Part shown: positions 4,047 to 34,774 of the stretch, piece after piece
Numbering within the stretch: position 1 is the first letter of the stretch
Layout: the number at the start of each line of letters is the position of its first letter
Source of the DNA: an uncultured virus (IMG/VR IMGVR_UViG_3300030104_003662)
Lineage: Duplodnaviria; Heunggongvirae; Uroviricota; Caudoviricetes
DNA: 34,799 nucleotides
IMG/VR virus record: IMGVR_UViG_3300030104_003662
Coordinates: 62,001 to 96,799 of that record
Strand: one strand, 5' to 3'
Translations under genes and position numbers: made by a program
The notes under the pieces: generated by a model
The model's input: the letters and a program-made list of their open reading frames with translations, nothing else
Database searches by the model: none
Told to the model about the DNA's origin: nothing

Positions 4047-5543
4047 TCATTCACTCTTCTTGCCGATTATGTCATCTATTCGTAGGATACTGATTGTAAC
4101 TTCACTAGCAGATTGTATAGCCTGACGAACAAGAGCCAGCGGCTCCCATACATTCGCCTTAGACATAGAGCAAGCGCCGCCATTCTCAATATCAGGACCT
4201 GCATCAGAATTACCTTGCTGATGTTCATTCCTTAGCATCAATACAGTGTCTAATGCATCGTGACCGGCATTCTCTGCGATAGTAGCAGGTATAGACTCTA
4301 GTGAGTCGGCAAATGCATCAATTGCCATCTGTTCACGACCACCTGCTTCTGCTGCACGAGAGCGCAAATGAAGTGCAATGTTCTGATACGAAGAGCCTCC
4401 GCCGGGTACCACTCCCTTGGTTTGATAAGCGAGACAAACTACTCCCAATGCGTCTTCAAATCCACGCTCGGTTTCATCCAGTGTCTGCTTAGTAGCACCT
4501 CTTAGAATAAGTGTGGTTACCTCTCCAGCGCCCTTTACTACAATATACTTCATGTCACCAATAGTGGTACATTCGATGTCTGCATCTACTGCTTCAATCA
4601 AGTCATCAGGGGTATGCGCGATAGTAGCGCCCAGTAGTTTACATAGAGCGGTCATATCACTTTGAGGGATGCGCTGTACTACAGAAATACCTTGTTTAGC
4701 AAGAGTAGCGGCGACTACCTCATTTACACTGTCTCTAACGAGTACAGTTCCACCTTTGGGTAAAAGTGAGGCGATTTGCTGTCCCTTGTCGACCCAATTA
4801 TCCCTTGAAGATTGTCGCTTATATTGCTGATATTCGGCAGCAGAGCCTAAGTTTAACTGTACATTATCATCGGACTTAATGTCGCTCATACCGGTGTTGA
4901 TTAGGATAGTATCGCCGTTAGGCTTGAGCGGCATTGCGGGTAACATGAACTCCTTGTGTAGCACTACACCTGAAAAGCAAGAAGAGTCATCCAGCGCTCC
5001 TCCCGGCTGACATAGTACACGGATTCGCTCGTAGTCACCCTTGGCATTCTCGACAGCGTCGACGCACAGTTCACCTACATGATGCATGCTAGATTCCAGC
5101 GCTTTGCCTGTAATTGAAGTGGTCGCCACATGTAGTAGGTTATCCTTGGACTTCACTTTTAGTGATTCAAGGTGCTCAATAGCCCATCTACTGGCCTTTC
5201 TATAACCTCTGCATATCACATTAGCGTGTAGACCTTTGTTGAACAGAAGTTCGCTGTTTCCTAGCAATTCCCCTGCCAATACGACTGTACTTGTCGTACC
5301 GTCATAACACATATTCTCTTGAGTGTTAGCGGCCTCTACCACCATCTTGGCCGCTGGGTGGCCGATGTCTAATTGCTGTAGGATAGTAGCCCCGTCATTT
5401 GTTACAATGACATTGCCACCTCCGTCAACCATCATCTTATCCATTCCCATAGGACCAAGGGTTGTTTTCACGGTGTCAACTGTTCGTTTCGCTGCTCTTA
5501 TATTGTGCACTACTGCACTTGCGCTCGTATCATTATCTTGCAT
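4047..5543 (-). CDS. ths: Thermosome (group II chaperonin) subunit
   Basis: [49 protein letters not shown]: canonical group II chaperonin motifs; 498 aa. Confidence 0.97.
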
Positions 5544-5571
5544 ATATTTCCCTCTCTTTTTGTTATTTGAA

Positions 5572-6180
5572 TCACCAATCTACTTCGTATTCTTTGACTT
5601 CGCCCGATGACCTGCACCGGGCTTTTATGAGTCCCTCATCTACGCCGTGACGCCATAGTTCATAAACTAATTCCGCATCTTTGAGGCAATACTCAGCGAC
5701 TTTGCTGTGATTACCCTTTCTCCACTCTATTGGGGCGTCGTGACTAGTCATGAGTTTACCTTTACCAAGAGTATGGTAACAGGCATCTGACAATGGGACA
5801 GCGTGACCGACTATACCTTTGAGCAAAGCAGATGTGTCAAAAACTTGCTCGGCTGATTTGTTCATAATGTCCCTTGCAGTCCAGCAATCCAAAGCGTCTC
5901 GGAGTATAGGTAGGTCAAACATTTTCAAGTTATGACCGAGTACCATTCCTCCATCAGATACATGCTTGGCAAGGTCCTCTCCGAGTGTTTTAGGATGGAG
6001 TGACTTGATGATAGTACCTTCGGGTAGATATTTTTCTACATTTTCATTCGCGTAAACTACACCCTCGTTACCATCCCATGTAGCGACTACGCTAGGTTCA
6101 AACAAGTGAGTTTGACCCCAGCCTCCTATTTCATGAGAGTAATTTGCAGTCTCTATATCAAGTGCCAGCATCTTATTCAT
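5572..6180 (-). CDS. DEDD/RNase H-like 3'-5' exonuclease (YprB-like)
   Basis: ExoI LDIET, Exo[12 protein letters not shown], ExoIII YCLKD. Confidence 0.85.
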
Positions 6181-11710: not shown

Positions 11711-12754
11711 TCACCAATACCTCTTAGGTCTCGCAGCGCCTGATGCGAACTCAAGGTTCCAATTCATCGCTTTGAATATATTTTTCATTTTAGATTTAAC
11801 CAATTTGTCGACCATCTTTTCATAATCTAATTCAAACCCTTCTAAATCAGTCTCGTTTCTATAGGCAACTATGTCAGCGGGCGGTAAGCCTTGGGGCACA
11901 CTAGTGACATATACCCAGTTTACACTATCTCCCTCTCCGAAGTAATCAGTCCTACTCTTAGCAATATGTGCGTTGTAATACCTTGCACCCTTTACTCCGG
12001 GCACACCTGCGTTTTTGGCATACGCATTGAGTGCTTTTTGAATACGAGTGGTGCCAGCGACTTCTTCTATTTCGACTGTACCCTTGTCTATTCTTTTGGC
12101 TAATGGTCTAACTATATCAGTCACAGTATCTTCGTCTGCACCTGTACAAATAGCCAACAGTACATCATTCTCTAAGTTTTTAGAAATGGGAGCCAGCGTG
12201 CTGATTTTACCCCATCGTGCGCTCTTGACTTTACCCTCGTCTTCGGGAGGCCATGAGCATATACCATAGTACAGGTTCTTACCGCCTACAATCCAGTAGG
12301 GCATGTATGCTTCAAACTCTACAGCCAAATGACTGGCGTTCAGAGTGCTTTGGGCTTTTTCAGTCAAGTGCTTGGCTAGTGCCGGTGCCTCATCAAATGG
12401 TACGCTTACGAATGCTGAATCAGTGTGACCGTACAAGGCTTCGTAACCCTGTGCTTGGGACTCCTCCATTAGAAACTTGATAGCCTCTCTGCCACAAGAA
12501 GTAATAGCGTTCGCTATGTCAAAGTCACACCATCCCCAATAAGGACTCGCAACGCAGCCATATAGACTCGCCATGACGCGCTTGGTAGCAAGTTGCATTG
12601 TATTCCAACCGGCCTTTTCTATAGGGTCTGTTGCTTCTTTCATCTTCTGCTTGTACTCATCACGAAGTTCAAACATTTCCTCTACAATCTGAGGCAAAAG
12701 TCCCTTCTTGGATTGGTCCCAGCGAGAGCCGTCAGGTAGTGTGTGTATAGTCAT
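11711..12754 (-). CDS. polB: Family B DNA polymerase, C-terminal subunit (fingers, motif C, thumb)
   Basis: GLLP...R...K; motif B variant QLATKRVMASLYG; ITSCGRE; motif C YGHTDS; EFE; KNLYYG. Confidence 0.92.
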   Translation of the reverse strand: MTIHTLPDGSRWDQSKKGLLPQIVEEMFELRDEYKQKMKEATDPIEKAGWNTMQLATKRVMASLYGCVASPYWGWCDFDIANAITSCGREAIKFLMEESQAQGYEALYGHTDSAFVSVPFDEAPALAKHLTEKAQSTLNASHLAVEFEAYMPYWIVGGKNLYYGICSWPPEDEGKVKSARWGKISTLAPISKNLENDVLLAICTGADEDTVTDIVRPLAKRIDKGTVEIEEVAGTTRIQKALNAYAKNAGVPGVKGARYYNAHIAKSRTDYFGEGDSVNWVYVTSVPQGLPPADIVAYRNETDLEGFELDYEKMVDKLVKSKMKNIFKAMNWNLEFASGAARPKRYW

Positions 12755-14070
12755 CGGACATCACCTTTTACTTGTGTAGTCCAGCAGAGGTTATGCGAGA
12801 GGATTAGCGAGGGGTACAGTCCCTTGTAATCTACACAGGCTACACTCTCGTATCGACCCGGTGAGGGCGGAGGTATGAATGCACCTTCGTACTCCCTTTT
12901 CTCCTGATTAGACTTAGTCGGGGCTTTCAAGTGAGTGCGTCTACTAAGTAGGCCACGAGCGAACCTCGTTACATTGTGACATGAAGAGAAGCGTACACCG
13001 CATAATCTTTGTAAGGATAAGAAGAAGTTTAGAACATGGTTGTCTTCATCTATTCGTTTGAGTAGAATAGTATCTTGCATACAGTAGTCGACATAGTCAT
13101 CAAACCGCTCGGCCCATCCAGTGAATACATCCATGTCGAACTTACCTCCCATGTTACAGGCTTTGGCTATGGTGTCTAGTTTTCTATTCTTCAACTGAGG
13201 CTGACCGCTATCTTTCCATACACGCTCAAACCCACTACCGCTTCTGATAGGAGCGGCTGTGTCAAAGCATAGCCTACCTATAATCGGCTGGGCCACATAG
13301 TCATAGCCCTTTGAGTCAGATTTGTTAGGTGGTCGCAGTACACGGTTTAGAGGACTTAGTTGCCTAAACTCAGGCAAACGCCTGATAAGATGCGGGAGGT
13401 CCGCCCACATTATTGCATGTGCCACGAATATGTCAGGATTACATTCATCCATATAGTTCATAAAAGCCTGATGCATTTCCCTCTCTGAGCCATATTCGTA
13501 CCGCTCATAAGTGAACTTAACAGGAACTTCGTTGACTTCATATTCAACCTCACGCTCTGTTGTCTCCCACTTATTCGCTAGTCCCTTTGGGTCATTATCT
13601 TGCCAGCAAAATGCTATGTTACGGTTGTTGTAATTGTCGATTACTGCCATAACTGTAGTCTCGTCAGTCTTGGGGTCCCATTCTAAATCGAAGTGCCATA
13701 CCCTTGGTTTCCATTGAGGCATCTCCTCTATCTCATCTATAAGGTACCTATCTGCTAGGCTAAAGTCGCCCTCCCAAGTCACTCTGAACTCATGGCACAT
13801 CTGCCTAATGTCGCTAGTTCTAAACGCATACACTTTGACTAACTTTTCATCAGTACGCAGTGCTACTGCTGTATCATTCCAGTCTATTTCTGAACCGGGG
13901 TAGCGACCTAGTATGCGATTAACAACACGAGGTGGAGTAGATTCTTTAATCCAAAAATAGGGCTTGAAGTCAGAGATGTGCTCTTCTATGAGAGCGCCCT
14001 CTGAGTCTCGCCATCTCTTGTAGATATGGTCAGGACCTTCGGGGTCAGGTCTGTATGTGTCGATTATCAC
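12751..14070 (-). CDS. polB: Family B DNA polymerase, N-terminal subunit (exonuclease + motif A)
   Basis: FKPYFW, FDLEW (ExoI), ADLP, KLDTIA, YCMQD (ExoIII), YEGA, DYKGLYPS (motif A). Confidence 0.92.
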   Translation of the reverse strand: MIIDTYRPDPEGPDHIYKRWRDSEGALIEEHISDFKPYFWIKESTPPRVVNRILGRYPGSEIDWNDTAVALRTDEKLVKVYAFRTSDIRQMCHEFRVTWEGDFSLADRYLIDEIEEMPQWKPRVWHFDLEWDPKTDETTVMAVIDNYNNRNIAFCWQDNDPKGLANKWETTEREVEYEVNEVPVKFTYERYEYGSEREMHQAFMNYMDECNPDIFVAHAIMWADLPHLIRRLPEFRQLSPLNRVLRPPNKSDSKGYDYVAQPIIGRLCFDTAAPIRSGSGFERVWKDSGQPQLKNRKLDTIAKACNMGGKFDMDVFTGWAERFDDYVDYCMQDTILLKRIDEDNHVLNFFLSLQRLCGVRFSSCHNVTRFARGLLSRRTHLKAPTKSNQEKREYEGAFIPPPSPGRYESVACVDYKGLYPSLILSHNLCWTTQVKGDVR

Positions 14071-19068: not shown

Positions 19069-19108
19069 ACTATCCTTTCTTGTTTATTTATAACCGGAAC
19101 TTCTCAGT
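19069..19108 (-). promoter_or_regulatory. Conserved viral promoter repeat, copy 1 (upstream of RFC)
   Basis: Minus strand ACTGAGAAGTTCCGGTTATAAATAAACAAGAAAGGATAGT with TATA box TTATAAAT; 38/40 identical to copy 2. Confidence 0.8.
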
Positions 19109-25268: not shown

Positions 25269-25308
25269 ACTATCTTTTCTTGTTTATTTATAACCGGAAC
25301 TCCTCAGT
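25269..25308 (-). promoter_or_regulatory. Conserved viral promoter repeat, copy 2 (upstream of DUF932)
   Basis: Minus strand ACTGAGGAGTTCCGGTTATAAATAAACAAGAAAAGATAGT. Confidence 0.8.
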
Positions 25309-26438: not shown

Positions 26439-26693
26439 CTATTCCTCTCCTTTCAATATCCAGTTGTCAGGTTTCTGACTGACTCTTAAAAATCTCTTCT
26501 GCGAATCTGTTCTTAACAAAGTGCTGATTGCTCTTGACGGTATGTTATCCATGCTGTAGATACTCTTACCCTCCCTCTCCAGTAAATTAAGCACCCTGTC
26601 CTTTATCGCATGGTGCGGTAGTGGCGATTCAGCCACCAATAGTATTTGCTCTGCATAGTTTCTAAACCTGTCTTTGTTAGTTAATCCCATCAT
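26439..26693 (-). CDS. Winged-helix (HARE-HTH-like) DNA-binding protein
   Basis: AEQIL...PL...I...ISTLL...RFLRV...W.L pattern; ATGA overlap with the helicase stop. Confidence 0.55.
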   Translation of the reverse strand: MMGLTNKDRFRNYAEQILLVAESPLPHHAIKDRVLNLLEREGKSIYSMDNIPSRAISTLLRTDSQKRFLRVSQKPDNWILKGEE

Positions 26694-28693
26694 ACCACCT
26701 CGTATTTCCAAGCACGCTCTTGCTTAAGTTTTCTAACCAGTTCCTTGACAAGACCCTTGCGTTCCTCAACATCTCCACCGTCTAGTACAGATTTAACCAC
26801 TTGCCTTTTCTGTTCAACTACACGGTCAAAGTGTTCGTCTATCGTACCGGCGCATGATATGTACACAGCGTGTACATGTTGGCTCTCCTGTCCTATTCTA
26901 TAGACTCGGTCCTCTGCCTGTTCTTCGTCAGTCGGAACCCATTCGCGCTCGATGAATAGAACTGTGTCTGCCGCTGTAAGTGTGATGCCCTCCTTGGCTG
27001 CAATTGTATTGCAGATGAGTACATCTATGTGACCCGCTTGGAAATCATCAACCAACTCTTGCCTCCTCTTAGAAGAAGTGTCACCATTGATGTAATTTAT
27101 TCGCTTGGTATTTCCATACTGCTCTAGTGCTTTCAGTTGCTCGCCTATCATTACCATGACATCACGATGATGAGTGAATACAACCAGCGGCATTTTCGTT
27201 TGGTCACGATACTGCCCTATCCAGTCGATGGCATACTTGACTTTGATTCTCCCGCATATATGTCTCAGGTCATTGAGCATGTTCAGCATCATGCCCTTTG
27301 GTAGCGACTCTCCGTTTAGGTAGTGGTCGTCTATTCTTCTGTCCCACTCCTCTTGCGCTATGTCATAAGGCTCCCTTTCAGACTTAGACAAATGTATAGG
27401 TAAGAAGGTACGAGTCTTAGGTGGTAGGTCAGGTAGTACTTCGCTCTTGAGTCTACGAATACATAAGTCACGAATCCTTTCATTGAGTTCCTTAGTGTGA
27501 CTTGCACCTGTGAAATCCCAGCCGAAGCCATTGTTCCAAGGGTCGCAGTAACGCTGTGCGAAGTTCCAAAAGTTAGGGAATTGCTCAGGGCGCATCAAGT
27601 TCAGAGTGTTGAAGAACTCAGAGGGGCGGCTGCTAATAGCAGTGCCACTAAGTGCAATCACCTTGGGTGAATCCTGTGCTACTAACAGAGTCGCCTGTGT
27701 CCGTTTTGCTCTACTGTTCTTTAGGTAATGTACTTCATCAAGTACAACCAACTTAGGACCTAGTGCAATTAGTTCGTCTTGCTTCTTCACCATCAAGTCA
27801 TAATTGATTATGATAATGTCAGCCGTTTCTATCGTTTCCTTACCCTTGGTAATGACCGTCACACTCTCAGTAGGTAACCACTTACTTACTTCTTTTTTCC
27901 AGTTGAACTTGACATTTGCAGGGCTGACTACAAGCATCGGCCTGTCCTTTGGGTTAATCGCAGCGTAACCTATGGTGGATATTGTCTTGCCAATTCCCAT
28001 CTCATCACCAATCAAACACATACCATTACTTGCTTCTGCAAACGCAACCGCTACCTTTTGGAAAGGGTACAGTTCCATGTCTTCGGGCAAGCAGTCATCC
28101 AGTCTATAGGATATTGACTCTACTCGCTCATCGGTTAATTCGGCAGCGGAACTCATCTCCACTCGCTCTATACTATCTGCGACATCAGCATTGATGTCCT
28201 CGTTACTAAGGATAGCCTGTGCCAAAGGTGGGTAGGAGTCCTCAATAAGTGAATGTAATGTGCGTGCTTGTGCGACAGGTATCGACCAGCACTTCTTGTC
28301 AGCATGAAACTTACGACCGCCTATGCTACGCACAGCAAGGCGTACAGTTTCACGCAGTTCGCTGTCTACAATGTAGGGCCAGTGCAAGTGTAACCTAGTA
28401 CGCTTAACCTCAGTCCAACACTCTGATTTGTTTTGCTGGTTTTCGGGGAGGGTTCCGTTGTGTTTGTGAATATACTCTGTATCATAGTTCAACTCTTCAA
28501 GTACCTGACATGCCTCGTCAATGACATACTTCTTGTTCTCTATGCTCCACAATTTTCTATCCGCATCCCACTTGAACTTAGGGAAACCCAGTGTCGACTT
28601 GAGCAGTTCATTGGTGTCAGGGTCATAACTGTACTTGAGGCCGAGCCTTTCGCCGTAGTCATCATTGTACAACTCTATGCTAATTCGCTTCAT
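26690..28693 (-). CDS. SNF2-family helicase with two HARP-like domains (SMARCAL1-like)
   Basis: LYPFQ, DEMGIGKT, DEVH, SGT, RRLK, EGITLT, QAEDRVYRIGQ; N-terminal KWDADRKLWSI and KFHADKKCWSI repeats. Confidence 0.93.
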   Translation of the reverse strand: MKRISIELYNDDYGERLGLKYSYDPDTNELLKSTLGFPKFKWDADRKLWSIENKKYVIDEACQVLEELNYDTEYIHKHNGTLPENQQNKSECWTEVKRTRLHLHWPYIVDSELRETVRLAVRSIGGRKFHADKKCWSIPVAQARTLHSLIEDSYPPLAQAILSNEDINADVADSIERVEMSSAAELTDERVESISYRLDDCLPEDMELYPFQKVAVAFAEASNGMCLIGDEMGIGKTISTIGYAAINPKDRPMLVVSPANVKFNWKKEVSKWLPTESVTVITKGKETIETADIIIINYDLMVKKQDELIALGPKLVVLDEVHYLKNSRAKRTQATLLVAQDSPKVIALSGTAISSRPSEFFNTLNLMRPEQFPNFWNFAQRYCDPWNNGFGWDFTGASHTKELNERIRDLCIRRLKSEVLPDLPPKTRTFLPIHLSKSEREPYDIAQEEWDRRIDDHYLNGESLPKGMMLNMLNDLRHICGRIKVKYAIDWIGQYRDQTKMPLVVFTHHRDVMVMIGEQLKALEQYGNTKRINYINGDTSSKRRQELVDDFQAGHIDVLICNTIAAKEGITLTAADTVLFIEREWVPTDEEQAEDRVYRIGQESQHVHAVYISCAGTIDEHFDRVVEQKRQVVKSVLDGGDVEERKGLVKELVRKLKQERAWKYEVV

Positions 28694-28697
28694 ACTG

Positions 28698-28967
28698 TCA
28701 CCTCTTCATTTTTTCCCAACAATAATAGCATTCATATTCACCATCAGCATTAGGGTTTTCAAGGGTTCTACCAAATTGTAAATGCTGTTCGTTTACTGAT
28801 ACGGAATCACATTCATTACACCAACCTGCATTATCCCTATAATACAGGAACTTATCATATGAGAAATCCTCATCCTCCATGTACATTAACACCTCATGCT
28901 CCCAATTTTTCTGCCTTTTCAAGTATTCAATTTCCTCTTTCAACTTCTTAACCTGTTCTTCATTCAT
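28698..28967 (-). CDS. Small Zn-finger protein
   Basis: CNEC...CYYC; starts within one junction element and stops within the next. Confidence 0.65.
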   Translation of the reverse strand: MNEEQVKKLKEEIEYLKRQKNWEHEVLMYMEDEDFSYDKFLYYRDNAGWCNECDSVSVNEQHLQFGRTLENPNADGEYECYYCWEKMKR

Positions 28968-29233
28968 GCTGTCACCTCCCACCACCAATGGGGTAATCCA
29001 TCTGTATGAGGTTGATGTGAAGCAAGGGCTTGGAAACTACAACACCCGCACATATACATTATCACATAGGGGTTCGTATCGCTCATACCAAACTTCATCA
29101 TCTCGTATTCTTCGTCTTCATCGGAGCAATTTGGGCACATCGAACTATTCACAAAGGGTAATTTTAGAGCATTTTTTCTGTCTAATTCATCTTCATGTTT
29201 GTCCTTATCTTCTTCATGTTCCCAACCTTTCAC
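28964..29233 (-). CDS. Small Zn-finger protein ending in EVTA
   Basis: CPNC...CGCC; GTG start in a junction element. Confidence 0.65.
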   Translation of the reverse strand: MKGWEHEEDKDKHEDELDRKNALKLPFVNSSMCPNCSDEDEEYEMMKFGMSDTNPYVIMYMCGCCSFQALASHQPHTDGLPHWWWEVTA

Positions 29234-29406
29234 GCCGTCACCTCCACGCTATAACCTCGCTCTTGTCTAATGCGCTCTGCGCTCAAGATATATGGCCCTT
29301 CAAGGCACTGGGTTGAAGATAGATTCGCATAGCAATCCATCTCCTGTTTGCTGTCACAAAGAATAGTCGTGCCATTATTGTTTAGTACAATCCACACTCG
29401 CTTCAC
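29230..29406 (-). CDS. 58-aa microprotein ending in VEVTA
   Basis: GTG 29406 follows SD GGAGGG; ends in a junction element. Confidence 0.6.
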   Translation of the reverse strand: MKRVWIVLNNNGTTILCDSKQEMDCYANLSSTQCLEGPYILSAERIRQERGYSVEVTA

Positions 29407-30162: not shown

Positions 30163-30328
30163 TCAAATCCCTCGCTCTCATTTCTAAACTACCAATTGTG
30201 TTATTGAATAGTTGATATTGTTCTTCTGTAATATCACCTGCTCTTTTCATATCGTGTGCTGCGTGAACAACCTCTTCAAGATTGGTCATCAGTTGGCTCC
30301 ATCTTAGTTCTGCTTTTGTTATTGTCAT
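30152..30328 (-). CDS. 58-aa helical microprotein (not in ORF track)
   Basis: MTITKAELRWSQLMTNLEEVVHAAHDMKRAG...RARDLNEL*; SD GGAGGGG. Confidence 0.55.
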   Translation of the reverse strand: MTITKAELRWSQLMTNLEEVVHAAHDMKRAGDITEEQYQLFNNTIGSLEMRARDLNEL

Positions 30329-30462
30329 CTCATCCCCTCCAAATCATCTAGGCATTTCTGAATAAACTCCTTTACCTTCTCTTCATCTCCGTCTTCTGCT
30401 GCTTCTAGTGCTATGTCTAAGCATACACTTGCATGCATTAATCTATCTATATTCATATTCAT
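30325..30462 (-). CDS. 45-aa acidic microprotein (not in ORF track)
   Basis: MNMNIDRLMHASVCLDIALEAAEDGDEEKVKEFIQKCLDDLEGMR*; ATGA overlaps at both ends. Confidence 0.55.
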   Translation of the reverse strand: MNMNIDRLMHASVCLDIALEAAEDGDEEKVKEFIQKCLDDLEGMR

Positions 30463-32279: not shown

Positions 32280-32286
32280 TCACTCT

Positions 32287-32326
32287 CTATCTTCTCTTGT
32301 TTATTTATAAACGGAACCTTTCAGTC
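32287..32326 (-). promoter_or_regulatory. Conserved viral promoter repeat, copy 3
   Basis: Minus strand GACTGAAAGGTTCCGTTTATAAATAAACAAGAGAAGATAG. Confidence 0.8.
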
Positions 32327-32332
32327 CACTCT

Positions 32333-32548
32333 TTATTCCAAAGGGTGTTCAATTCCTTTTTCGCCCAGCGCCCATTTCAGTGTCTTGACTACACCTTCAA
32401 GTGCCTTGTAATTTCTGATATGAAAGACGCGCTCGGCCTTCTTGCCCCTCTGCATTTTGGTGTAGTGCATGTTCTGCTTGCGCTCTGCTCGGTCAAGCAT
32501 GTCCTCTATCTCGACCCATGTTCTATCGTATGTTCTCTGTTCACTCAT
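32333..32548 (-). CDS. Hypothetical helical protein (71 aa)
   Basis: MSEQRTYDRTW...ALEGVVKTLKWALG; start lies within a junction element. Confidence 0.7.
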   Translation of the reverse strand: MSEQRTYDRTWVEIEDMLDRAERKQNMHYTKMQRGKKAERVFHIRNYKALEGVVKTLKWALGEKGIEHPLE

Positions 32549-32664
32549 GCTGTCACCTCCACGCATCTTTCGCATTCTTTATTGACGCATACGGGCATCA
32601 TAGTCCACAGGTACAGCATGTGTTCTCCACAAGCGTAGCATGGGTTCAGTGCACTGTTACTCAT
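32545..32664 (-). CDS. 39-aa Cys-rich cassette microprotein
   Basis: MSNSALNPCYACGEHMLYLWTMMPVCVNKECERCVEVTA*. Confidence 0.6.
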   Translation of the reverse strand: MSNSALNPCYACGEHMLYLWTMMPVCVNKECERCVEVTA

Positions 32665-32822
32665 GCCGTCACCTCCACGCCTTCTTCATCAACCAAGTTA
32701 GCATATCTGCATTGAGAACAATACCAACCGAACCTCGGTGTATCAAATCGTTGTCCTTCATACTCAAGCGCAACCCATACCTCTTCTGTTTCATTATAAT
32801 GCCCGCACCTTGTACACTTCAC
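32661..32822 (-). CDS. 53-aa Zn-ribbon cassette microprotein
   Basis: MKCTRCGHYNETEEVWVALEYEGQRFDTPRFGWYCSQCRYANLVDEEGVEVTA*. Confidence 0.7.
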   Translation of the reverse strand: MKCTRCGHYNETEEVWVALEYEGQRFDTPRFGWYCSQCRYANLVDEEGVEVTA

Positions 32823-32980
32823 GCCGTCACCTCTTCATATTCTATCGCTTCTTCAACATTTTCTAAATGCTCTTGAATTATATCGTATCTAAGTTGTAAT
32901 TCGTCAAGTGCTTTCTTCATTTCCTTCAATGATTGTTCATAGCCACTTTTCATTCCCTTTAATGCTCTTAACTTACTCAC
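32819..32980 (-). CDS. 53-aa coiled-coil cassette microprotein
   Basis: MSKLRALKGMKSGYEQSLKEMKKALDELQLRYDIIQEHLENVEEAIEYEEVTA*. Confidence 0.65.
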   Translation of the reverse strand: MSKLRALKGMKSGYEQSLKEMKKALDELQLRYDIIQEHLENVEEAIEYEEVTA

Positions 32981-33066
32981 GCCGTCACCTCCACACCATT
33001 AACAAACATCTTGTATCGTATGCCATTGATAGTCCATATCGCTTTGTATGTTATTTCTTCACTCAC
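32977..33066 (-). CDS. 29-aa cassette microprotein
   Basis: MSEEITYKAIWTINGIRYKMFVNGVEVTA*. Confidence 0.55.
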   Translation of the reverse strand: MSEEITYKAIWTINGIRYKMFVNGVEVTA

Positions 33067-33070
33067 GCCG

Positions 33071-33202
33071 TCACCTCCACGCTCTCATACTTTCCACGCC
33101 AATTGATTTGCACATCTCATTCAAGACATCTTCACCATATCTATGTAGAATCCACTGCATCATTCTGTTCATCATATATTCATTTGTATCTATTTTTTTC
33201 AT
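33071..33202 (-). CDS. 43-aa cassette microprotein
   Basis: MKKIDTNEYMMNRMMQWILHRYGEDVLNEMCKSIGVESMRAWR*; stops at the TGA inside the SD of the next element. Confidence 0.6.
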   Translation of the reverse strand: MKKIDTNEYMMNRMMQWILHRYGEDVLNEMCKSIGVESMRAWR

Positions 33203-33765
33203 GCTGTCACCTCCACGCCTCGCCACCAGTCGGGAGCAGGTGTTCCCTTCTCCCACTTGGCGAATGTCTTGGAATGGTAGTAGGCTCGGTATGCTTTGAC
33301 CGCATCATCACCTTCTGCTTCCATGTAAAGCACATCATCACTACTTCCTCGTGGTCTATACTCGTCAGGCATAGCCAGTGCGAATGGTGTAAGTGCTGCT
33401 TTAGGACTTGGGTATTTGTCAGGAAACAAAAATACCAAACCTAACATTGAATGTATAGGTCGTTCACAAGCATGATTTTTACCAAAGCGCTTTGCGTATT
33501 CATTACACAAGGCTATTGCATGAGTGCATAGCCAAGCGAAGTTGGCCTCACTATCACCAGCCCATACTGTGCATGGGTGGTGAGCGTAGCCTCCCTTGTA
33601 AGGAGTCCCTGACTTAGTAAGTGGCATCTGCTCATCAGTAGCACCATGTCGGCGCAGGGCTGATGCCATCATCTGTGCTGCTTCAACACACATCTTAGGC
33701 ACATGCTTGTCGCAGTGCATTCGTGCTGCTATCACTGGGTCTTTATCTAATACAAATATATTCAT
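33199..33765 (-). CDS. Pyrimidine-dimer DNA glycosylase / endonuclease V-like protein
   Basis: MNIFVLD.DP..AA..HCDKHV.KM..E.AQM, HHPCTVW, AMPDEY, AYRAYY, W.K...PDW: family signatures. Confidence 0.85.
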   Translation of the reverse strand: MNIFVLDKDPVIAARMHCDKHVPKMCVEAAQMMASALRRHGATDEQMPLTKSGTPYKGGYAHHPCTVWAGDSEANFAWLCTHAIALCNEYAKRFGKNHACERPIHSMLGLVFLFPDKYPSPKAALTPFALAMPDEYRPRGSSDDVLYMEAEGDDAVKAYRAYYHSKTFAKWEKGTPAPDWWRGVEVTA

Positions 33766-33786
33766 CTTATCAACTCTAACTGTTTT

Positions 33787-33825
33787 CTACATTCTCTTGT
33801 TTATTTATAACCGGAACTCTTCGGT
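33787..33825 (-). promoter_or_regulatory. Conserved viral promoter repeat, copy 4 (heads the cassette array)
   Basis: Minus strand ACCGAAGAGTTCCGGTTATAAATAAACAAGAGAATGTAG. Confidence 0.8.
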
Positions 33826-34305
33826 TCACTTTTTACTCAAACTCCTATTCATCGGTATAACTGATTTGTTTATGTGGTTTCTAAATCGAGTGACCTGTGA
33901 TTTAAGATTCTTAATAACCGTGCTCAGTTCTTCTACTGAATTAACAGCCGACCTAGACCTTGAGTAAGCACCTGCTGACTGTTCAGAAATCGTATGCGCC
34001 AGTGTCTCAAATGTCTCCTTGGCAACCTTCTCCATCTGTTCTTCTACAATCGGTATTACAGTTGCGCCTATTGCTTCGTGTAATACTTTTAACAAGTCTT
34101 CTATCGAATCCATACGCTCTTCTATAGAATCCATACGATTGATTACACTTTCCTTATCTTTTTCTAGCGCCCTCTCCATCTGATTGTAAATGTTACTCCT
34201 AGAGCCTTTGCCTCTATTTCTACAATCGTAACAAATGCTATCGGTCGCTTTAGTTGAAAACTTTCTAAACTGTACTCCACAGTCATGGCACACAGCGTAC
34301 ATCAT
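33826..34305 (-). CDS. Zn-finger plus coiled-coil protein
   Basis: CHDC...CYDC followed by heptad repeats (RMDSIEERMDSIED). Confidence 0.7.
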   Translation of the reverse strand: MMYAVCHDCGVQFRKFSTKATDSICYDCRNRGKGSRSNIYNQMERALEKDKESVINRMDSIEERMDSIEDLLKVLHEAIGATVIPIVEEQMEKVAKETFETLAHTISEQSAGAYSRSRSAVNSVEELSTVIKNLKSQVTRFRNHINKSVIPMNRSLSKK

Positions 34306-34583
34306 CTTTCAATCACCTTCACCAATGCCTGTTTCATTTCATATACACTCTCATGTTCATCAAATGTAACTTCAATAATCGCCTTACGCAACCGCTTGAC
34401 TTCTGCAAGGAAAAGTGGTGCGTCTGCTATGAGTGCTGCATCTGCTGGCTTTGGATGCTCGTTGTTTCCATCCTCTGCAAACATCAGTAACCTCATACTA
34501 CCAGTGAGTGATTTATGTCTCGCCCCTTCGTACCATTTCCATTCTCCTTCTGTATGTCCTTCGTATTTGTCTGTGTCAATCAT
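34302..34583 (-). CDS. MIDTDKYEG-family protein (Ead/Ea22-like DAALIADAP motif), paralog 1
   Basis: HTEGEW...DAALIADAPLFLAEVKRLR. Confidence 0.65.
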   Translation of the reverse strand: MIDTDKYEGHTEGEWKWYEGARHKSLTGSMRLLMFAEDGNNEHPKPADAALIADAPLFLAEVKRLRKAIIEVTFDEHESVYEMKQALVKVIER

Positions 34584-34774
34584 TCTTCTTCATCTCCCAT
34601 GTGTTCGTTCCAAACATCAGTCGCCTCTGTGCTTAGATGACTTGGTATCAAATTAAACAAGGCATCTGCCAATGCACTCAACCGCTTGACTTCTGCGAGT
34701 AAGTGGTCTAATCCATCGTAGTCAATGTAGCCTTCTGCATCAATCAATCCTTCGTATTTGTCTGTGTCAATCAT
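34580..34774 (-). CDS. MIDTDKYEG-family protein, paralog 2
   Basis: Shares the MIDTDKYEG and LAEVKRL blocks with paralog 1. Confidence 0.65.
   Translation of the reverse strand: MIDTDKYEGLIDAEGYIDYDGLDHLLAEVKRLSALADALFNLIPSHLSTEATDVWNEHMGDEEE

Follow-up and report, generated by a model that had tools for sequence, protein, structure and literature searches.

Promoter-early stem-loop (PeSL) cassettes occur in the hyperplastic regions of T4-type phages, where, in the excerpts of two reports that describe them, they mediate insertions, deletions and replacements (Arbiol et al. 2010, PMC2839356; Comeau et al. 2014, PMC4122927). In the haloarchaeal myovirus HGTV-1, a motif composed of a TATA box and an inverted repeat stands before most open reading frames (ORFs) of the left arm, and the part of the report concerned with it likens it to PeSLs (PMC3950731, citing Sencilo et al. 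2013). Here we analyze a 20-nucleotide (nt) element, GCGTGGAGGTGACRGCRTGA, that joins small genes in the terminal 34.8 kb of the 96.8-kb uncultured virus record IMGVR_UViG_3300030104_003662 (the window, that is, the whole analyzed stretch of 34,799 nt, positions 62,001 to 96,799 of the record). The virus appears from its gene content to be magrovirus-like and of archaeal type, and, judged by analogy, PeSL cassettes would be the closest known system to its junction element.

The likeness to PeSLs, as those excerpts present them, lies in short conserved regulatory repeats that flank ORFans in a plastic region, in insertion, deletion and replacement breakpoints between related viruses that fall in the repeat with no integrase involved, and in a repeat that lends expression signals to whatever follows it downstream. 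By contrast, the same excerpts describe the PeSL as an intergenic promoter-plus-terminator with a stem-loop, whose signals are transcriptional, whereas the element studied here consists of 20 nt within overlapping coding sequence, has neither promoter nor hairpin, and carries signals predicted to be translational. The cassettes here would moreover share one transcript, and they belong to an archaeal-type virus rather than to bacteriophages; mini-circles are reported for PeSLs in the excerpted text, whereas the present arrays are known from assembled contigs alone. The HGTV-1 motif, in the portion of PMC3950731 that treats it, is likewise a repeated regulatory motif before many small ORFs of an archaeal tailed virus and is proposed to drive shuffling, but it is transcriptional and contains an inverted repeat, and so stands nearer to a four-copy promoter-like repeat of the window than to the 20-mer. 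For coupled gene pairs, the excerpted text of Huber et al. 2019 (PMC6728339) describes a 4-nt stop/start overlap after an intragenic Shine-Dalgarno (SD) sequence, which is the architecture of all tight junctions here; those junctions are gene-specific, whereas one 20-nt sequence here serves up to 10 junctions per genome, recurs across viruses and lies at breakpoints.

With integrons the locus appears to share a conserved 5' platform with a promoter (here a promoter-like repeat), followed by variable, seemingly promoterless cassettes separated by a recurring site, and a first-pass annotation of the window had called the array integron-like and integrase-free. The platform-plus-array layout stands, and no tyrosine integrase was detected, but every defining integron feature tested fails: no intI-type integrase was found here, and the repeat is neither an imperfect palindrome nor a folded attC-like site. 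The repeat also overlaps coding sequence and sets the reading frame, and the arrays are viral, not cellular. Lambdoid phages carry short conserved boundary or "linker" sequences at gene borders, for which a role in guiding module exchange has been proposed; homologous exchange at such short gene-boundary sequences is a common trait, but lambdoid linkers are not known to form a single standard SD/stop/start unit reused in tandem arrays. Our literature search found no description of the present junction, term searches in two magrovirus papers turned up neither a promoter or Shine-Dalgarno sequence nor recombination or a motif of this kind, and the matches listed for searches with 12-mers of the motif were unrelated eukaryotic primers. 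From comparisons of the window with related loci, we hypothesize that the 20-mer is a translational-coupling linker that doubles as a short-homology exchange site in a magrovirus-like clade, which we regard as probable.

The 20-nt junction and its conservation

Minus-strand positions 33829-32283 form one compact unit composed of a promoter-like repeat, a gene for a DenV-like protein, six microgenes and a second promoter-like repeat, and all gene boundaries inside it are copies of GCGTGGAGGTGACRGCRTGA. The six copies that the first-pass annotation had placed 86-158 bp apart were recovered at 33218-32564 on the minus strand, with spacings of 136, 86, 158, 158 and 116 nt; four are exact, one has 1 mismatch and one has 4 (ATGAAGAGGTGACGGCGTGA). 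The interval microgenes of 43, 29, 53, 53 and 39 amino acids (aa) that it had proposed likewise correspond to ORFs, and a 71-aa gene additionally follows the last copy. A second cluster, which it had missed, lies at 29249-28690, where three copies (5' ends at 29249, 28983 and 28709) link a 58-aa gene, two 89-aa genes and an SNF2 helicase gene. Allowing at most 3 mismatches, the window contains 7 minus-strand matches to the 20-mer against 0.02 expected, a number reached in 0 of 100 shuffles. The junction had been termed universal, which claims too much: it serves only 9 of about 25 tight junctions in 34774-28698, and no copy of the 20-mer was found in the remaining 62 kb of the 96.8-kb genome. 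Both clusters sit among unannotated small genes, and the arrays vary between relatives.

The element is made up of three parts: an 8-nt Shine-Dalgarno sequence (GGAGGTGA), a 4-nt spacer and an RTGA stop/start overlap, in which the TGA that follows the first base of the RTG start is the stop codon of the upstream gene. Of the 8 GGAGGTGA sites in the window, 7 fall inside junction elements. Genes overlap by 4 nt at five of the six array junctions and are separated by a 4-nt gap at the other. Upstream translation is stopped in two frames (...VEVTA* and ...WR*), and, as first proposed, both are used in the array: the DenV-like gene and four of the five upstream ORFs end in ...VEVTA* on the TGA overlapping the next RTG, and the 43-aa ORF ends in ...AWR* on a TGA that lies within the Shine-Dalgarno sequence. 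In related loci, 141 of 152 spacings between neighboring copies equal 2 modulo 3 (...VEVTA*) and 11 equal 1 modulo 3 (...AWR*); none equals 0 modulo 3, the frame that, from the sequence, would read through as RGGD(S/G)(M/V). Among 155 upstream ORFs that stop within the following repeat, 149 use the ...VEVTA* frame and 5 the AWR* frame.

Selection on a start, a stop and a ribosome-binding site would not by itself account for this uniformity, because some 15 other ATGA junctions in 34774-28698, a run of about 24 consecutive small genes that nearly all overlap by ATGA or GTGA, have diverse upstream and SD sequences. A survey of 634 unique RTGA-overlap junctions, taken from 80 loci picked by their DenV-like protein and so independent of the motif, yielded a bimodal distribution of mismatches to the 20-mer: 72 junctions match it exactly, and a second, broad peak lies at 7-12. 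Where the core GGAGGTGA is perfect (133 junctions), no more than 3 of the 8 flanking positions deviate in 123; where the core has one mismatch (97 junctions), this holds for only 14. The bimodality and the linkage of core and flanks therefore indicate a discrete repeat family rather than the strong end of a continuum. At the Thr codon of the motif, its only free synonymous site, the third base is G in 85% of cases, A in 13%, and C or T in about 1% each (in a set enriched for exact copies), whereas ACG makes up 13% of Thr codons genome-wide; in the codon xGC before the tail, GC is kept (72-80%) while x and the encoded residue vary. Two reading frames are in use as well. Constraint acts at the nucleotide level, beyond the needs of SD, start and stop; the first-pass claim of conservation exceeding SD and start codon is upheld by the diverse neighboring junctions, the bimodal mismatches and the Thr codon usage.

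No RNA structure was detected in eight junctions folded with 20-nt flanks, which fold no better than shuffles (z -0.77 to +1.88). The 20-mer, lying inside overlapping coding sequence, has no TATA-like or other promoter element and, from the sequence, is not palindromic. Only its 8-nt core pairs with the canonical 16S rRNA 3' end, which we take as a stand-in and which may not be that of the host.

The exact 20-mer is present in 85 stretches of a viral contig collection. At least two copies are held by 59 of 81 non-duplicate loci and at least four by 25, with a maximum of 10 and a median spacing of 158 nt; no opposite-strand copy was found across 80 related loci. Motif junctions occur in 57 of 81 DenV-anchored loci, usually beginning at the DenV-like stop codon, and 22 more distant relatives are without any. 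Some of these have a junction consensus of their own: GAGGGAGTTGACRAATGA stands at 3-4 successive junctions (about 4880-5810) in L256, and GGAGGAAGAGGARTGA lies downstream of the DenV-like gene in L219 and L223 (L numbers denote the stretches compared). Standardized junctions may therefore arise independently in different lineages.

In cellular genomes (596 Gb), 86 stretches contain the 20-mer; among the 80 matches listed, nearly all are single and in high-GC bacteria (Streptomyces, Paraburkholderia and others), none is titled Poseidoniales, and the single matches are taken as chance or unrelated. Only two of those listed are multi-copy matches, namely L162 (NZMJ01000078.1, 9.3 kb, filed as a Maricaulis metagenome-assembled genome, MAG), with 5 exact copies, and L152 (CAXXDF010000003.1, 61 kb, filed as an Opitutales MAG), with 2. 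Their copies stand at array-like spacing, and both are probably misbinned virus contigs.

Cassette turnover and its breakpoints

The 247 ORFs that start at the repeat fall into 128 families, which recur with different neighbors and in different orders; the lineup of microgenes differs between relatives. The microgenes are coding sequences, with differences at codon positions 1, 2 and 3 numbering 97, 84 and 244 (33 families of at most 100 aa, one pair per family); no microprotein has a Pfam or PHROGs match above threshold. The c2 cassette (32980-32819) illustrates their mobility: its interior shows 95.7% identity to three contigs with DenV-like genes that agree with that of the window at 58-59% of amino acids, while the sequence beyond both flanking repeats is unrelated and the cassette's own degenerate 3' repeat is carried along. 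Where the DenV-like genes beside them reach no more than 80% identity or cannot be aligned, 35 of 49 cassette pairs are at least 90% identical in nucleotide sequence. Median identity is 95.7% for cassettes and 73.8% for DenV-like anchors, a comparison that is biased because short cassettes below about 75% identity escape blastn detection.

Replacement of downstream neighbors was scored at tight junctions whose upstream 80 nt are at least 80% identical elsewhere, the downstream gene being classed as same, diverged or replaced. Over all comparisons the neighbor was replaced in 588/610 cases at motif junctions and in 161/557 at other junctions; where both genes are at most 120 aa long, the fractions are 74/79 and 86/220. 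Counted per junction, all partners were replaced at 46 of 50 motif junctions and 65 of 237 others, and within 2.5 kb downstream of the DenV-like gene in motif-bearing loci replacement reached 95/99 (96%) at motif junctions against 25/109 (23%) elsewhere. Breakpoints of gain, loss and replacement are thus found in the element, as had been predicted, and far oftener than at other junctions. The ends of alignment blocks follow the same pattern, with 755 of 1520 internal right ends lying at most 5 nt from a repeat end; only 202 of 1476 left ends are near a repeat start, since conserved anchor genes lie upstream.

L014 and L020 differ by a 391-nt indel of two cassettes, the alignment blocks overlapping by exactly the 20-mer, and indels leave one repeat. 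In a close relative (L045/L009), which is 97-99.8% identical to the window over long stretches, the DenV-like gene and five cassettes have been replaced together, the left border falling right after the operon's ATGA start and the right border exactly at copy 6 (32564). At 2703-3586 of L045 (opposite window positions 33762-32565), another first gene, also ending in ...GVEVTA*, occupies the place of the DenV-like gene; the "anchor" is therefore itself exchangeable. The bases at motif positions 1-4 vary with the family upstream, those at positions 16-17 with the family downstream, and crossovers are accordingly placed in the invariant core between them. The same arrays were recovered in contigs of different metagenomes (L041/L063, L013/L042, L022/L066, L027/L064 and L002/L003), and among loose ends listed for contigs of other samples (2 studies), 11 of 20 lie at most 5 nt from a repeat edge.

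Weighing the explanations

Our proposal is that the element acts as a standardized translational-coupling junction, with its RTG start overlapping the upstream TGA stop, and that it would string ORFan microgenes into one polycistronic unit behind the promoter-like repeat and the DenV-like gene, the microgenes being presumably expressed and translationally coupled. At this junction co-infecting or sister genomes would exchange whole microgenes by insertion, deletion, replacement and reordering, most likely through short-homology recombination or through template switching during replication, in either case within the invariant core; the junction would serve as an exchange point because each cassette has the same 14-20 nt at both ends. 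We infer that the repeat causes the exchanges rather than merely marking tolerated breakpoints.

Several observations weigh against this proposal. A systematic scan for indels between flanks no shorter than 100 nt and no less than 88% identical found 26 unique events, of which only 5-6 touch the 20-mer and 20 lie elsewhere; 22 of the 26 are at some SD/start/stop junction with just 5-8 nt in common, most without the 20-mer. Between the window and L045/L009, three further cassette indels lie at ordinary junctions sharing 5-8 nt (ATGA-GCAT, AATATGA and GGAGG). The short-homology reshuffling suggested by the first-pass annotation would fit the comparative pattern, but whole-gene indels are not peculiar to the repeat. 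Since indels occur at ordinary junctions, whole-gene turnover at coupling junctions is general in these viruses, and the 20-mer represents it in its most extreme form without being the only vehicle. Selection for intact genes could by itself put breakpoints at gene borders, motif-linked genes may simply be more dispensable than others, and the neighbor-replacement pair counts represent non-independent events. The conserved flanks could serve translation, as sequences around the Shine-Dalgarno motif affect reinitiation in the excerpted text of Huber et al. 2019 (PMC6728339). A stretch of 14-20 nt is short for classical homologous recombination, and the RadA-like and Cas4-like proteins with which the virus had been credited were not recovered, the Pfam families Rad51 and Cas_Cas4 having no match in the 96.8-kb genome. 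Nor did the genome match Phage_integrase (PF00589), for which the control matched 14/14 genomes; the HARP Pfam family had no match either, but its control matched nowhere and that search is therefore uninformative. In contigs from four public runs, the sides of inter-copy joints measure only 20-34 nt; such joints therefore reflect the repeat alone and are ambiguous as recombinants, and no recombination intermediate or circle was seen in these assembled contigs.

Much of this would suit a rival account, which we think rather unlikely, in which the 20-mer is purely an optimized termination-reinitiation junction and turnover results from illegitimate recombination followed by selection for intact genes. 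The preponderance of indels at SD/start/stop junctions lacking the 20-mer, the 5-8 nt shared at the three indels against the close relative, the reported influence of SD context on reinitiation and the lineage-specific consensuses of distant relatives all agree with it, and the frame bias of the RTGA overlaps shows selection on translation. It does not readily explain why neighbor replacement is about fourfold commoner at motif junctions within the same region, or why diverse sequences suffice at some 15 other junctions of these operons; moreover, the exact 20-mer occurs in the listed cellular genomes only as chance singletons and so is not a general host optimum, and its flanks do not extend pairing with the anti-SD sequence (on the assumed canonical 16S 3' end, with the proviso given above). 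A recombinase or nuclease, encoded by virus or host, that recognizes the 20-mer and moves cassettes seems very improbable to us, even though length and invariance are typical of a protein recognition site, GCGTG is directly repeated at positions 1-5 and 15-19 when position 17 is G, and many viral genes are unannotated: the genome has no detected tyrosine integrase, the element, tied as it is to the reading frame, shows no inverted repeat, palindrome or hairpin, and cassette indels occur at unrelated junctions too.

The conserved feature might instead be the C-terminal peptide ...VEVTA, for example a sorting, turnover or chaperone tag, with the DNA repeat as a by-product. Its near-constant use by upstream ORFs fits, as does the thermosome subunit that the virus encodes, but we give the idea scant credence: the Thr codon is almost only ACG or ACA despite the genome-wide share of ACG, the codon before the tail keeps GC while its residue varies, and 5 to 11 junctions use the AWR* frame instead. 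An assembly artefact, with assemblers joining different viruses at a common repeat, is conceivable in that all data are metagenomic contigs and the repeat is common to co-occurring viruses, yet we judge it extremely improbable given the five contig pairs from different metagenomes with identical arrays and the intact codon-position signatures across families. The usual final assembly k-mers are, besides, longer than the 20 nt of the repeat.

Returning to the linker that doubles as an exchange site, a further-reaching version is possible, and we offer it tentatively: the 20-mer would be a portable expression-and-exchange adaptor, such that any ORF flanked by it is translated by coupling and can be transferred between co-infecting magroviruses by recombination within the repeat, perhaps via one-repeat circles like those of PeSLs, and the repeat would spread because the cassettes that carry it move more.

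Genomic setting and significance

The features of the two clusters are collected in the table below. The DenV-like gene, which appears to be the conserved anchor of the array, matches the Pfam family Pyr_excise (E 9.6e-7, 29.5 bits against a cut-off of 23) and phrog_624 (E 7e-61), and its protein has 192 relatives in viral contigs. The promoter-like repeat GTTCCGKTTATAAATAAA, of which about 35 nt are conserved, has four copies in the 96.8-kb genome, all on the minus strand; one lies 35 nt 5' of the DenV-like start codon, another just 3' of the array, and none inside it. Its promoter function is presumed. The repeat (...GTTCCGGTTATAAATAAAcaaga...) stands before gene blocks, with cores at 19083-19100 and 25283-25300 (-) as well as at the two sites in the table, and it may delimit transcription units in that half of the genome. 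A simple regular expression found it in only 1 of 80 DenV-anchored loci, and it is therefore either lineage-specific or too divergent for such a search.

Coordinates of the array operon and the second junction cluster (positions in the window; on the minus strand the 5' end is the higher coordinate)
Feature	Position	Strand	Remarks
Promoter-like repeat heading operon	33783..33829	-	TATA-like core GTTCCGGTTATAAATAAA at 33800-33817
DenV-like gene, 188 aa, pyrimidine-dimer glycosylase family	33199..33765	-	ends ...RGVEVTA* in junction copy 1
Junction copy 1	33199..33218	-	exact
Microgene, 43 aa	33071..33202	-	ends AWR* on TGA inside copy 2
Junction copy 2	33063..33082	-	exact
Microgene, 29 aa, GTG start	32977..33066	-	
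Junction copy 3	32977..32996	-	1 mismatch
Microgene, 53 aa, coiled-coil-like, family c2	32819..32980	-	
Junction copy 4	32819..32838	-	degenerate, 4 mismatches; variant travels with c2 cassette
Microgene, 53 aa, Cys-rich (CxxC...CxxC)	32661..32822	-	Zn-ribbon matches sub-threshold only
Junction copy 5	32661..32680	-	exact
Microgene, 39 aa, Cys-rich	32545..32664	-	
Junction copy 6	32545..32564	-	exact; 98.7% identity to close relative resumes exactly here
Last array gene, 71 aa, family c18	32333..32548	-	common to close relative
Promoter-like repeat closing operon	32283..32329	-	core 32300-32317
Junction copy 7, second cluster	29230..29249	-	exact
89-aa gene between copies 7 and 8	28964..29233	-	
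Junction copy 8	28964..28983	-	3 mismatches
89-aa gene, family c0	28698..28967	-	elsewhere inside arrays downstream of DenV-like gene
Junction copy 9	28690..28709	-	5 mismatches, GAAGAGGTGACAGTATGA core; feeds SNF2 helicase gene 26690-28693

The genome encodes a thermosome subunit (Cpn60_TCP1, E 8e-131), a SNF2-rel_dom protein (E 4e-35) and DNA_pol_B domains by Pfam. Thermosome-type chaperonin, SNF2 helicase and family B DNA polymerase together make up the group A magrovirus combination in the excerpted text of PMC5434244, and the genome has this group A-like combination, as judged from these three functions. Many other viral genes are without annotation in Pfam or PHROGs. A 439-aa ORF (12751-14070, -) contains the family B polymerase exonuclease domain and only the first 50 or so positions of the polymerase domain; with the next ORF at 11711-12754, the polymerase therefore appears split over two ORFs. 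Two minus-strand genes at 34580-34774 (64 aa) and 34302-34583 (93 aa) both start MIDTDKYEG and have a common ...AEVKRL... stretch, which suggests a tandem duplication immediately 5' of the array operon. No Rfam family was found in the Rfam search; the sole hit, to the C/D-box small RNA family sR2 at 30287-30335 (-), scores 18.8 bits (E 0.94), below the gathering score of 42, and is probably due to chance.

Magroviruses, which cannot be cultured, rank with the most abundant viruses of archaeal type in the surface ocean. Published descriptions, in the excerpted text of PMC5434244, emphasize a conserved gene order within their replication and structural modules. The present locus is the opposite, a small defined region in which ORFan microproteins undergo rapid modular turnover at a standard connector. 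It extends the idea of regulatory repeats that act as recombination linkers, known from T4-type phages and their promoter/terminator modules, to an SD/stop/start junction in an archaeal-type virus, and the principle may therefore be general to dense viral operons. In practical terms, the element provides a simple sequence handle by which unannotated microgenes of 26-100 aa can be located in viromes, and a natural design for promoterless, translationally coupled cassette arrays. Should the 20-mer prove to be a portable adaptor in the sense set out above, it would constitute an integrase-free gene-cassette system built on a translational rather than a transcriptional signal, and would give these abundant ocean viruses one of their principal means of trying out new small proteins.

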